Below are positions 6,312-14,130 of a stretch of 17,197 nt of DNA, piece after piece. Numbering within the stretch: the stretch's first letter is position 1; every line of letters starts with the position of its first letter. The stretch lies in the UHGV virus genome UHGV-0182888, one strand, 5' to 3'. The notes below the pieces were generated by a model. That model saw nothing but the letters and a program-made list of their open reading frames with translations, searched no databases and was not told the DNA's origin. This DNA is from a virus. The position numbers were made by a program, and so were the translations under genes.

Positions 6312-7022
6312 TCACATTTCTGCCACTTTGAGGGCTTCTTCTTCCTCATAGTATTCAAGAGCCATGGCCAACGCAGATTCATCAAGCTGCGTAAAAGCGG
6401 CCTTTAACCCAGCCCAGTGCCCTGAATAGACACGCAACCATGTCGAACGGTCAACGCTAACCATGCGGGCCAACGCTGCACCAGCATAGTCTTTATAGGT
6501 TTCATTATTTCTGGTTGCGGCAATTTCCTGCCCGGCCAGCCATACCAGGCCTATCAGTTTCTTTACTACGCGCTCCTGAAGCGAGTTTTCACCCAGGCAT
6601 TTCTGATAAGTTTTCCAGACGTATTCACACATCATCACCTGGTGCTTATAGCTCAGGTCAAAGCCGTAGCAGTACCGCAACCAGGCCTGCTGGTATCCAC
6701 TAAGCGCGGACACTGCCCTACGCCACGGCGCGGACTCAAATTCCGCATCTTTTATCGGCGGCATTGGCCTGCGGCGGCTGCGTGTTTCCAGTACATACAG
6801 TGGCGCGGAAAGCGAGTGAACAAAGCGTGGCCCCTTCTCTCCTTCAAGTTCGACGAGATGAATTCCACGGCGCGGGGTGGCATTTTTGTCTGCTGGTGGG
6901 TGTTCACTGAAAGCCTCAAGCTGCCCTTTTGTTCCCCCAGAGAGGTCAGGTAGCGCGCGGCGCAATTCTATTCTTACAAAATTCAGGTCTTGTTGATTCA
7001 TGCTTCTTTGCGCTCCATACAC
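6312..7022 (-). CDS. Putative late-gene antiterminator Q (QuuQ-like); start may be the internal Met at 7001
   Basis: 236-aa ORF directly abutting the DUF968 stop and immediately upstream of the promoter/terminator pair and late genes. Synteny matches DUF968–Q pairs in E. coli Qin/DLP12-type prophages (recalled). No confident sequence-level match from memory. Confidence 0.6.
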   Translation of the reverse strand: MYGAQRSMNQQDLNFVRIELRRALPDLSGGTKGQLEAFSEHPPADKNATPRRGIHLVELEGEKGPRFVHSLSAPLYVLETRSRRRPMPPIKDAEFESAPWRRAVSALSGYQQAWLRYCYGFDLSYKHQVMMCEYVWKTYQKCLGENSLQERVVKKLIGLVWLAGQEIAATRNNETYKDYAGAALARMVSVDRSTWLRVYSGHWAGLKAAFTQLDESALAMALEYYEEEEALKVAEM

Positions 7023-12207: not shown

Positions 12208-12405
12208 TCACGCAGCCGAATGACTACGCTTTTCATAAAGGGATTGGTTAACTTTCAAATCACCTTTCGTCAGCGCCTGGATCTCAAATGCCCTCCCCTT
12301 TGGGATAACTTCATCCCAGCCCGATACAGATGCGTGGGAGATATTCAGCGCCTTGGCGGTTTTCCCTACGCCACCGAAGTAAGAGATAACGTCATTCTTT
12401 TTCAT
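12208..12405 (-). CDS. Cro-like repressor (small HTH protein, YdaS/Cro family)
   Basis: 65 aa, MKKNDVISYFGGVGKTAKALNISHASVSGWDEVIPKGRAFEIQALTKGDL. Divergent from cI across an operator-containing intergenic region of about 100 bp. SD GAGGG upstream of ATG 12405. Confidence 0.75.
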   Translation of the reverse strand: MKKNDVISYFGGVGKTAKALNISHASVSGWDEVIPKGRAFEIQALTKGDLKVNQSLYEKRSHSAA

Positions 12406-12442
12406 TTTTCCCTCTGGAGTTAGGTCATGCAGTGCATAGATA

Positions 12443-12504
12443 GTAGGATATCTTACATAAAATGGTCAAGCACTCCTACATTAGAAAATGGTAGGATTGC
12501 CTAC
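12443..12504. promoter_or_regulatory. OR-like operator region between cro and cI (14-bp palindromes GTAGG-N4-CYTAC)
   Basis: gtaggatatcttac at 12443..12456 and the perfect palindrome gtaggattgcctac at 12491..12504, with a weaker third half-site (cctac 12475..12479). The second site abuts the cI ATG at 12505, suggesting a leaderless cI mRNA. Confidence 0.5.
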
Positions 12505-13161
12505 ATGAAAATGAATGATCGAATCCGAAGCAGACGAAAAGAGCTGAAGATGACGCAATCCGTCCTGGCAAAGCTTGTCGGGGTAAACCGCGTCACGATC
12601 ACCGGCTGGGAATCTGGTGACTATAAACCTGGCGGTGAGAACCTTCAGGCGCTTGCGGCTGCTCTTGAAAAGACACCGCAGTGGTTGCTGGAGGGTAAGG
12701 ATGACGGGAAACAACAACCGCCAACAATGAACCCAGAGCAGAGATTCGGAATTAGATCAGTTCCCGTTTTAACGTGGGTGCAAGCCGGGGAATGGACTGC
12801 CAATAGCGGTGCGATAACGGAACGAGACATTCAAGACTGGGTTTACACTTCAGCAGCTGTTTCAGAGAGCGCTTTTGCACTAATAGTCCGCGGTGACTCA
12901 ATGACTAACCCAAATGGCGCACCAAGCATCCCGGAGGGCTCTCTCGTCGTCGTAGAACCTGACTTTGGAGATGCCAGCCAAGCAAATGGTAAAATTGTCA
13001 TTGCTCAGCTAATGGGAAGTGACGAAGCCACTATAAAAAAATTCGTCATTGATGGTCCGCTTAAATACCTTGTACCTCTCAATCCCAACTACAGGATGCT
13101 CGAGGTAAACGGCAACTGCCGTTTGGTCGGATTAGTAAGACAAGTGATAATGGATTTATAA
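12505..13161 (+). CDS. cI-like repressor (N-terminal HTH, C-terminal LexA/S24 autopeptidase domain)
   Basis: HTH region MTQSVLAKLVGVNRVTITGWESG. Ala-Gly cleavage site (WVQAGEW). S24 catalytic motifs VRGDSM (Ser) and a conserved Lys (EATIKKF). Start taken at ATG 12505 (MKMNDR…); the ORF-track start at 12427 would leave no room for operators. Confidence 0.9.
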   Translation: MKMNDRIRSRRKELKMTQSVLAKLVGVNRVTITGWESGDYKPGGENLQALAAALEKTPQWLLEGKDDGKQQPPTMNPEQRFGIRSVPVLTWVQAGEWTANSGAITERDIQDWVYTSAAVSESAFALIVRGDSMTNPNGAPSIPEGSLVVVEPDFGDASQANGKIVIAQLMGSDEATIKKFVIDGPLKYLVPLNPNYRMLEVNGNCRLVGLVRQVIMDL

Positions 13162-13162
13162 G

Positions 13163-13188
13163 GAAACCGGGTTATCCCGGTTTTTTTT
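13163..13188 (+). terminator. Rho-independent terminator after cI
   Basis: Stem aaccggg (13165..13171) pairs with cccggtt (13176..13182), loop ttat, followed by a T-run (8 T at 13181..13188), 4 nt after the cI stop. Confidence 0.7.
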
Positions 13189-13199
13189 CACCCCTCAAT

Positions 13200-13251
13200 G
13201 TAAGTTATCCAACATTTCCTCTTGACCTTTCTTTGTAAGTTATCCTACACT
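13200..13251 (+). promoter_or_regulatory. OL/pL-like region: two operator-like sites and a sigma70-like promoter reading rightward
   Basis: gtaagttatccaac at 13200..13213 and gtaagttatcctac at 13235..13248 match the OR pattern GTARG-N4-CYTAC. -35 TTGACC at 13222..13227 and -10 TACACT at 13246..13251 (18-nt spacer), with the second operator overlapping the spacer and -10. Confidence 0.45.
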
Positions 13252-13550
13252 AAATAAACAAACAGCGAACAGGCAGGACGCCCACGAAGTAGCCGCCGGT
13301 GGCATATGAATAACCGGATGATTCGCTGACAGGTGTCTTCGGGAGGGGTAACAGAGGCGCGGTCTGATTAACCGCAACTCGTAGTCAAATTCCTATAGCT
13401 GGTGGCGATACCCAAGCCAGGAATACCAAAACCAGCAGGAGTGTTAAGGGCAAGGGCTAATCACCCCCTTAGCACCCCGCCCGAAGATACCTACCACCAC
13501 GCCTGATGTGGTTAAAAGCAGGCCAAAGCAATAACAAGTAACTCCCTGTT

Positions 13551-13600
13551 CTGGCGGCCCGGTGTTTTCACGTTTGTCCGGTAACCGCCAGCCTTTTTCA
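13551..13600 (+). terminator. Terminator-like hairpin within the early-left leader
   Basis: ctggcgg (13551..13557) pairs with ccgccag (13585..13591) around an inner ccgg/ccgg stem, followed by CTTTTTC (T-run 13595..13599). Lies between the pL-like promoter and the first early-left gene. Confidence 0.4.
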
Positions 13601-13758
13601 GGGCGCAACAGAAAAGGGTATCACCGGGCGACGGGCTCATAACCCAATCCCCCCGGGCAAGAGGATGGCGATTGCAGTCGCCGACAAATGCAGGTGCCCT
13701 TCTCTGTTGTGTATGGAGAAAGTTCGGCGGTTGCAGCCGCCTTAACGAGGGTAAAACC

Positions 13759-14130
13759 ATGAGTAATGACCGCATGACCGTAGTGCCAGATTTCCTTGGC
13801 GAACTGGATGCCGGCGTGTTCATGAACAAAATCGCGGCAGCACTTAATACCACCGCGCTTGGCGTTCTGAACAACGGCAACAAAGGCAAAGTAGTCCTCA
13901 CATTTGATTTTGAGCGCATGGGTAATTCCGTTGAAGAGAAGCGCGTCAAGATCAAGCACAAGCTGAACTACAGCACCCCAACACCGCGTGGTAAAGCCTC
14001 CGAAGAGGACACAACCGAAACCCCGATGTGGGTCAACAAAGGCGGGAAGCTCACCATCCTGCAGGAAGATCAGGGTCAGCTGTTCGGGATCACTGGCGCG
14101 GTGGATGGAAAGCTTAAAGCGGCTCAGTGA
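13759..14130 (+). CDS. Hypothetical protein (123 aa), first gene of the early-left operon (YfdP-like by recall)
   Basis: ATG 13759 with SD GAGGG 8 nt upstream; the ORF-track entry 13672..14130 uses an upstream TTG. Acidic/neutral product, not arginine-rich, so not N-like. Confidence 0.65.
   Translation: MSNDRMTVVPDFLGELDAGVFMNKIAAALNTTALGVLNNGNKGKVVLTFDFERMGNSVEEKRVKIKHKLNYSTPTPRGKASEEDTTETPMWVNKGGKLTILQEDQGQLFGITGAVDGKLKAAQ

Follow-up and report, generated by a model that had tools for sequence, protein, structure and literature searches.

The sequence analyzed here is the virus genome UHGV-0182888, a stretch of 17,197 nucleotides (nt) referred to below as the window, which holds the regulatory part and the early genes of a lambdoid prophage from an enterobacterium. 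The closest phages found by BLAST were Eeyore, Flotzy, LLS, phiNP, and 118970_sal3, with 77-82% identity over parts of the query. The segment of interest, positions 13189-13758, is best explained as the 5′ leader of the early-left (pL) transcript of a lambdoid prophage that lacks an N gene and is related to LLS, ST64B, and SfV, and our main subject is a conserved, covarying three-helix RNA near its beginning (13262-13330, plus strand), which we refer to as block A. The leader follows a LexA/cI-like repressor gene (12511-13161, plus strand) and the intrinsic terminator of that gene (13163-13189, plus strand), which from its sequence reads AAACCGGG-UUAU-CCCGGUUU followed by a U run (T8). This hairpin and T run are also kept in SfV, ST64B, and an E. 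coli prophage, and the SfV record annotates the terminator. A pL-like promoter is located at 13222-13251 on the plus strand, with TTGACC at 13222-27, an 18-nt spacer, and TACACT at 13246-51 (9 of 12 positions matching sigma-70), for a predicted transcription start at about 13258, and a promoter scan found TTGACC-18-TACACT to be the sole plus-strand promoter-like site in 13000-14300. Two operator copies, TGTAAGTTATCC(A/T)ACA, flank this promoter at 13199-13214 and 13235-13250. Operator-like near-palindromes of 16 base pairs (bp) related to TGTAAGnnATCCTACA occur around pL (13199-13250) as well as at the divergent cro/repressor promoters (12440-12505), where they include half-sites related to the pL operators; this is the expected OR/OL arrangement. 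On the minus strand, cro (12208-12405) shares an operon with a cII/YmfL-like gene, replication genes, lysis genes, and the small terminase, and a Q-like antiterminator gene (6312-7022, minus strand) lies in that same other operon, far from the leader.

The first early-left gene (13759-14130, plus strand) encodes a YfdP-like protein of 123 amino acids (PHROG 204, E = 1e-41; the RefSeq homologue is named 'YfdP family') and is followed on the plus strand by YfdQ/DUF2303, a dNMP phosphatase, and small unknown genes. Its start is corrected here to 13759 from the position after 13758/13760 that was implied by the original prediction, a note made earlier on this DNA from the sequence alone. The run-up to the gene (13715-13761, plus strand), defined from sequence, alignments, and folding, contains a conserved GGAGAA (13715-20), a hairpin GGCGGUUGCAGCCGCC (13726-41), a Shine-Dalgarno sequence GAGGG (13747-51), and the ATG at 13759. 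That no N-like gene would be present and that the first gene would not be arginine-rich had been claimed before, and PHROG and Pfam scans agreed on both counts: the YfdP-like protein is neither arginine-rich nor N-like, and no N-like protein was found with PHROG or Pfam N_peptide among the plus-strand open reading frames (ORFs) of 13759-16940, the 3.4 kb of the pL operon within the window.

The leader itself had been described as about 500 nt of ORF-free sequence, and 13255-13758 indeed contains no plus-strand ORF longer than 34 codons. The longest plus-strand ORFs in 13189-13758 encode 34 (GTG start, 13402-13506), 26, 26, and 24 amino acids, in addition to a TTG extension of the downstream gene, and none of the small leader ORFs had a Pfam match. 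BLAST comparisons showed the leader to be a mosaic in which two short non-coding blocks, A and B, are conserved in many phages. Relatives insert an ORF of 300-370 nt between these blocks, and the small genes found at the leader position in relatives (SfV orf33 and a 'ClpX C4-type zinc finger protein') have no remnant in the leader of the window by tblastn. When the whole leader (13258-13762, 505 nt) was folded, its energy was -201.1 kcal/mol compared to -167.7 ± 6.3 kcal/mol for 100 dinucleotide shuffles, none of which was as good (z = -5.3). The original prediction had also proposed that the leader is a structured RNA, to be checked by folding and covariance analysis and by a scan of Rfam. 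The proposal itself was confirmed, as the leader is conserved and non-coding, folds with the z-score just given, and contains two modules, blocks A and B, with compensatory base changes across many related phages. The Rfam scan assigned it to no family: Rfam 15 gave no match across the whole window at gathering thresholds, and a search of 13100-13850 at E ≤ 10 returned only six chance-level matches (E ≥ 0.33), all far below the family thresholds.

Block A is a conserved, covarying RNA at the start of early transcripts

Block A is about 65 nt long and starts approximately 6 nt after the predicted transcription start. Helix P1 (13264-69/13322-27) encloses helix P1a, in which GGC (13272-74) pairs with GCC (13280-82) around the loop AGGAC, followed by an invariant 13-nt junction, CACGAAGUAGCCG (13283-95), helix P2 (13296-13300/13313-17) with the loop GGCAUAUGAAUA, also given as GGCRYAYGAANN, and the 3′ junction AUGA (13318-21). 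An exact-core scan of IMG/VR, together with phage matches, provided about 90 distinct versions from 125 phage and prophage loci (individual loci are given below by L numbers), and the model of block A, R1, scores the copy in the window at 95.7 bits. In an alignment of 50 sequences, 91% of the cells pair, compared to 72% in shuffled and 22-40% in slid controls, and 148 cells carry double changes, compared to 44 in shuffled controls. P1 is found as GCGAA/UUCGC, ACGAA/UUCGU, CCACC/GGUGG, CAUC/GAUG, and GGAAC/GUUCC, while the P2 strand is found as CCGGU, CCUGG, CCCGG, CCGAC, CCACC, CCAGC, CCCGA, and CCCCA, each with a matching partner strand. Unguided prediction with RNAalifold returned the same three helices, with compensatory changes in 10 of the 13 pairs. 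The compensatory changes include G-U pairs, which would be A-C mismatches on the opposite strand, indicating that block A is an RNA of the plus strand. These results establish block A as a three-helix RNA that is conserved and covaries.

Hardly any variation is seen in the junction and the loop, which amount to about 26 invariant unpaired bases, a part of this invariance being imposed by the search pattern. In the distant versions from Providencia, Erwinia, Mixta, and Aeromonas, the P1a loop reads AAGGAAA and CCCACGAAGUAGC is kept, so that a GGA is retained in the loop when it changes from AGGAC to AAGGAAA. A pseudoknot between GCC (13292-94) and GGC (13301-03) is tentatively suggested by one double change (U-A in Klebsiella) and one wobble, and mismatches also occur at these positions. 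A degenerate-pattern scan of genome contigs for block A was too loose, with 118 of its 120 loci attributable to chance and only those of Erwinia sp. and Mixta mediterraneensis real. A resemblance to the hammerhead core (GAUGA/CGAAG in a three-way junction) was rejected, as the order of the strands does not fit and the Rfam ribozyme models are silent. Positions 13318-13329 of block A can also be read as AUG AUU CGC UGA, and many variants keep such a mini-ORF of 3-6 codons (M-I-R-stop), which in our view recalls the bar minigenes of lambda. The UGA or UAA of the 3′ junction is nearly invariant, and the Providencia and Aeromonas versions are without the AUG.

Matches to block A were found in 51 phage records and in a third of the complete E. 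coli genomes (1819 of 5426), and it is annotated in none of them. Its carriers span at least 10 genera, among them phages of Salmonella, Shigella, Klebsiella, Yersinia, Pectobacterium, Erwinia, Providencia, and Aeromonas. No description of it was found in the searchable literature, including the work on ymfJ/ymfK of e14 and on the ST64B small RNAs, and block A is a common and strongly supported phage RNA motif that is apparently undescribed. The e14 prophage of E. coli K-12 has a copy of its own (L377, 3501-3570, from E. coli DH1/K-12; 73 bits) between ymfK, which encodes a LexA-like repressor, and ymfJ. This copy, also unannotated, lies behind TTGACA-17-ATAATG and 24 nt upstream of the ymfJ start codon.

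A similar position was observed throughout the sample. Of 101 distinct contexts, 81 have a sigma-70 promoter (9 or more of 12 positions matching) no more than about 125 nt upstream of block A, and the best promoter match ends 6-28 nt before P1 in 83 contexts, mostly 12-24 nt (distances re-derived from the scan offsets), with block A usually starting 5-18 nt after the transcription start. In SfV, ST64B, e14, SPN3UB, SEN34, mEp237, a Klebsiella phage, and the Aeromonas phage pAEv1818, it is found after the repressor gene and before early-left genes of the kil/gam/recE/exo type, which is the slot occupied by N and nutL in lambda and by putL in HK022 and HK639. Block A is followed by 79 kinds of first ORF, which start 2-940 nt downstream, and the 30 of these ORFs that were sampled fall into scattered Pfam families only. 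Given this diversity, block A is tied to the start of a transcript and not to a gene. It is also present in the virulent T5-like Providencia phage vB_PreS_PR1 (L127, ~2490-2575), where it lies in the terminal repeat with a strong promoter upstream and the pre-early genes A2/A1 downstream, has the P1a loop AAGGAAA, and is directly followed by a boxA, CGCTCTTTAA. The T5-like Providencia phages share no regulators with lambdoid phages. This occurrence, together with a junction that is nearly invariant from Escherichia to Aeromonas, makes a conserved component of the host a likelier partner of block A than a protein of the phage.

A boxA ([CT]GCTCTT[TA]A) was found within 400 nt after block A in 10 of 103 distinct contexts, against a chance expectation that we estimate ourselves at about 0.006 per context. 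One of these is a perfect rrn-like boxA, AGCTCTTTAACAA, and another is the boxA of the T5-like phage; in SfV-like prophages as well, a near-perfect rrn boxA comes after block A, or after block A and a hairpin. The Aeromonas, Erwinia, and Mixta copies (L126 2560-2640, L153, L239, and L087) share a further downstream motif, GUUCUGAC, with a hairpin whose GAAAGA loop may be boxB-like, followed by GGGCAUAACCAAU or GGUAUGACCAAU, which resemble the core of block B.

Elements between block A and the first early-left gene

Downstream of block A, a domain of about 150 nt (domain 2; 13336-13487, plus strand) is predicted to be closed by a 12-bp helix between UCUUCGGGAGGGG (13336-48) and CCCCGCCCGAAGA (13475-87). 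The closing helix is present in both the minimum-energy and the centroid folds (sub-fold z = -2.6), and the closing strands are the same in ST64B and loci L050 and L080, where the interior is different or similar; the interior varies between relatives in general. Domain 2 is a predicted fold without covariation support. It is followed by block C (13494-13530, plus strand), ACCACCACGCCUGAUGUGGUUAAAAGCAGGC, in which pairing by eye gives a candidate pseudoknot of CCAC/GUGG crossing GCCUG/CAGGC. Block C is conserved in an E. coli prophage and forms the very start of the leader of phage LLS. The sequence at 13430-13549, just upstream of the leader terminator, is C-rich and G-poor, with a GC skew of -0.22 to -0.27, and in composition looks like what is expected of a Rho loading site.

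The strong hairpin and T run that had been noted at 13551..13600 were recovered as a stem at 13551-57/13586-92 on the plus strand, CUGGCGG.CCGG...CCGG...CCGCCAG with an inner CCGG/CCGG, followed by CCUUUUUC, giving a feature at 13551-13599 with a folding energy, flanks included, of -24.5 kcal/mol (z = -2.95). A consensus scan missed it because the loop is longer than 8 nt. A strong hairpin with T5-6 is present directly upstream of domain B in all 40 of 40 distinct contexts and is formed by at least eight unrelated stem sequences, and such retention with unrelated stems is the signature of an intrinsic terminator under selection. Judged by its sequence, 13551-13599 is a conserved intrinsic terminator. 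An ops/RfaH-like reading of the GGCGG at the terminator base was rejected, since relatives match it at just 7 of 12 positions and the window at fewer still.

Domain B (13604-13711, plus strand), the next element, is formed by an 18-bp long-range helix (13604-22/13693-13711) with a conserved mismatch (13613/13702), which encloses an inner hairpin (13624-28/13652-56) and a variable hairpin (13661-13692). In 17 sequences, 97.5% of the cells pair, compared to 42-50% in slid controls, and double changes are found in 6 pairs and in 17 cells, compared to 4.5 cells in shuffled controls; covariation support for the inner hairpin tested alone is weak. The tip of the domain B hairpin, CGGGCUCAUAACCC (13632-45), is identical over 14 nt, three G-C pairs included, to the anticodon stem-loop of the E. 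coli initiator tRNA metZ. This copy is almost invariant in 30 variants, with ST64B-type variants changing loop position 37. The same string, CGGGCTCATAACCC (13632-13645), matches the metZ/W/V anticodon arm, and AAUCC...CCGG downstream of it faintly recalls a T-arm. ARAGORN found no tRNA or transfer-messenger RNA in the window, and the anticodon-arm copy could be either a functional mimic or an old fragment of a tRNA gene. Anticodon-arm mimics are known, for example, from the thrS operator, and the leader hairpin likewise copies GGG-CUCAUAA-CCC of the initiator tRNA exactly; it differs from mimics of that type in lying about 115 nt upstream of the start codon and not at the ribosome-binding site, and the YfdP-like gene has no known link to tRNA-fMet.

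In the predicted fold, the terminator U run and the conserved GGAGAA (13715-20) can extend the domain B helix into a long, irregular duplex, presumably of the kind that RNase III cuts in other early phage RNAs. The RNase III hairpins of the lambda N leader and the T7 early mRNAs would be comparable in being long irregular duplexes just upstream of a gene start in an early transcript. They have no counterpart of the apical tRNA-like hairpin. The terminator and domain B together behave as a cassette that also precedes genes other than yfdP. The leader of LLS begins with a segment equal to 13490-13760 of the window, and mEp460 and Stx2a_1447 have a different 5′ module ahead of the cassette.

Relation of block A to known antiterminators and its candidate roles

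The put RNAs of HK022 and HK639 are cis-acting antiterminators that require no protein factors and bind the zinc-binding domain of the polymerase beta′ subunit, an interaction blocked by rpoC Y75N. Structurally, put has two stems, arranged as a V, and a triplex (PMC9378689). As the original prediction had suggested that the leader might be HK022 put-like or might carry nut-like sites, both were searched for, and neither was found. A put covariance model, R2, was built from 25 put sequences, 48 distinct put variants having been collected from IMG/VR by a single 14-mer scan. R2 scores HK022 putL at 95.7 bits and putR at 45.4 bits, while its best match in the window is 7.3 bits (E = 4.6) and lies elsewhere, and it has none in SfV, ST64B, LLS, mEp460, or Stx2a_1447. 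In the other direction, R1 gave no match at the put sites of HK022 or HK639 and finds no site in HK022, HK639, LLS, mEp460, or Stx2a_1447. The put sequence and its two stems (CGAACGGCGCG...AAACCAUGCGUCGG...GGCGGG...CGGCAAU) are not present in the window. The strings CGAAC..GGC and GGAUGA, shared by block A and put, were considered as a sign of common origin, but CGAAC is a strand of the covarying P1 and both models reject homology. The 'putL-like antiterminator RNA' annotated in HK639 and putL/putR of HK022 resemble each other and not block A. What block A shares with put is its location just downstream of pL in phages without N, its size (structured RNAs of about 65-75 nt), the lack of a dedicated protein gene, and a wide distribution in enterobacterial prophages, where put occurs in the 48 variants mentioned. 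The fold is different, block A being a closed three-way junction with an invariant junction compared to the V shape and triplex of put.

The lambda nut site (boxA and boxB, used with N protein) occupies the same place on the pL transcript as block A, a boxA follows block A in about 10% of the relatives, and one relative has an N-like gene. The window contains neither N nor boxA nor a boxB-like pentaloop hairpin, and block A exceeds boxB several-fold in size and is also the better conserved of the two. The exact boxA sequence YGCTCTTWA (CGCTCTTTA-like) is found nowhere in the window, its one-mismatch matches are at chance level with none on the plus strand of the leader, and the first pL gene in the window is not a cognate arginine-rich N. 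Block A is therefore neither put nor a lambda-type nut site. The rrn antitermination leader (boxB-boxA-boxC with NusB/E, NusA, NusG, SuhB, and S4) offers another comparison, in that block A of the T5-like Providencia phage, like that of SfV-like prophages, precedes a near-perfect rrn boxA, but most carriers of block A, including the window, are without boxA. None of the 129 loci with block A (1.28 Mb) gave a put match, and one of the 48 put loci has block A; this near-exclusivity fits alternative solutions to one problem and, equally, independent modules.

Given the position of block A between the promoter and a conserved terminator, we tentatively propose, at somewhat less than an even chance, that this RNA works in cis and protects the polymerase transcribing it from termination, either by itself or with the help of host factors of the Nus type. 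By analogy to put, block A would act on the very RNA polymerase that made it, elongation would become resistant to the leader terminator and to Rho along about 500 nt of untranslated RNA, and only transcripts initiated at pL would then express the early-left genes. Block A would thus be functionally like HK022 put with an unrelated fold. Domain B would take no part in the antitermination step and would serve further downstream in processing or translation, possibly as an RNase III-type site. The proposal is supported by the conserved terminator between block A and the first gene, which would have to be read through, by the C-rich, G-poor stretch ahead of it, by the absence of another antiterminator (N, put, or boxA) from the window, by the enrichment of boxA after block A in relatives, and by the near-exclusivity with put.

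Several observations weigh against this proposal. We infer the effect on polymerase from position and by analogy, which is itself a weakness. In the IMG/VR prophage L346 (8763-8935), block A and a full put element stand in tandem in the same pL leader with 13 nt between them, and in the AT-rich prophage L041 (5791-6445), a gene for an N-like protein, with an above-cutoff match to Pfam N_peptide (34 bits), begins about 200 nt past block A; either arrangement would be redundant if block A did the same job. The cassette of terminator and domain B occurs without block A in LLS, mEp460, and Stx2a_1447, and only weak plus-strand terminator candidates lie downstream of block A in SPN3UB, SEN34, and mEp237. 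In some loci, such as L059, a different 5′ module comes first, and block A is then separated from the promoter by about 90 nt. There is no second block A in the pR operon of the window (cro through Q to the lysis genes), the R1 match being the only one in the 17.2 kb, while HK022 has putR in that operon; for HK639 only putL is annotated as well, so a second site is not universal even among put phages. A crude count of terminators downstream of block A, which returned more sites on the opposite strand and mis-called the terminator of the window itself, was discarded as uninformative.

The arrangements with put and N would be easier to understand if block A had a separate job, such as determining the fate of the RNA, with block A as a 5′ stabilizer or the site of a global RNA-binding protein and domain B as an RNase III-type site releasing a stable, translatable mRNA. 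This is consistent with the usual location of block A at the extreme 5′ end, with the GGA in the P1a loop, which is as in CsrA sites and is kept through the loop changes, and with the 18-bp helix of domain B, whose extension by the U run and GGAGAA is like the sites in the lambda N leader and T7. We nevertheless consider it unlikely, as an invariant 26-nt junction kept in several genera is more than a stabilizing hairpin requires, block A is in some loci not 5′-terminal, and the conserved terminator and the association with boxA are left unexplained. The boxA, present in about a tenth of the contexts, would fit block A as a nut-like landing pad for a trans-acting protein that builds the antitermination complex, either a phage factor encoded elsewhere or a host factor such as NusA, S4, or SuhB, so that the RNA would not be the effector. 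The position is that of nutL, the N-like gene of L041 comes right after block A, and in relatives a small ClpX-type zinc-finger gene or orf33 often follows. The 79 types of first ORF include no gene common to all carriers, the T5-like phages are without lambdoid regulators, the window has no N, zinc-finger gene, or boxA, and no boxB comes near the complexity of this three-way junction of 65 nt, in which about 26 unpaired bases are invariant, making a landing pad quite improbable.

Early-left regions are known homes of anti-defence genes, and block A is transcribed ahead of anything else in early-left operons, as it is in the pre-early region that T5-like phages inject first. Together with the 14-nt identity to the tRNA-fMet anticodon stem-loop, nearly invariant in 30 variants, this would agree with a leader of decoy RNAs (block A and the anticodon-arm copy) that would be produced at the outset of infection or induction and titrate a host or defence factor, for example an anticodon nuclease such as the VapC toxins cutting initiator tRNA. 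The case is purely circumstantial and has no known target, one RNA copy per transcript makes a weak decoy, and the tRNA likeness covers only the anticodon arm, is not called a tRNA by ARAGORN, and changes at loop position 37 in ST64B-type variants; a decoy role is accordingly more improbable still. The mosaic nature of the leader, the ORF of 300-370 nt that relatives have between blocks A and B, and the lack of covariation support for domain 2 and block C could also be taken to mean that the region is a junk spacer left by recombination, including the loss of a small gene, with structure as a by-product of G+C-rich fragments and only the terminator functional. In blocks A and B, compensatory changes well beyond the shuffled and slid controls already contradict such a view, and with block A retained in at least 10 genera and in one of every three complete E. 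coli genomes, and with a whole-leader z-score of -5.3, it is scarcely credible.

A recent (2025) paper on phage LLS reports no N homologue and only guesses at 'put RNA-mediated' antitermination (PMC12315714). How lambdoid phages without N and put pass their early terminators is an unanswered question, for which block A is a concrete candidate. Should it prove to be an antiterminator, it would bring to just two the RNA folds known to reprogram bacterial RNA polymerase alone; otherwise, as a very common motif among phage RNAs, it would still deserve an Rfam entry, and the e14 copy in K-12 makes the antitermination proposal readily testable. The cassette of terminator and domain B, with its anticodon-arm copy, is a second unexplained conserved element. 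In the broadest form of the proposal, which we regard as doubtful, block A would represent a second, structurally unrelated class of self-sufficient phage antiterminator (or anti-Rho) RNA, working with no phage protein and used by many N-less lambdoids (SfV, ST64B, e14, and mEp237/Gifsy-like) and by T5-like phages for their first transcripts, and the anticodon-arm copy, with a target such as the 30S P site/IF3, MetRS, or an anticodon nuclease, e.g., VapC, would be a further new phage-host interaction.

Leaders of related phages also differ in their 5′ modules. In mEp460, Stx2a_1447, and others (L131 2430-2560, L132 2490-2620, and the start of the L059 leader), a different conserved module, CCAGACC...UCUGGUUG followed by ACACGGCGUAUGGCACAUGCGUCG, either replaces block A or sits upstream of it. 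A put-like reading of the start of the mEp460/Stx2a_1447 leader (AACACGGCG...CAUGCGUCG) was dropped, as the put model does not detect this module. The leader modules seem to shuffle like cassettes. A comparable exchange was observed in the put variant L348 of IMG/VR, in which stem-loop I is kept and stem-loop II is replaced by a boxA, CCGCTCTTTAACAA.

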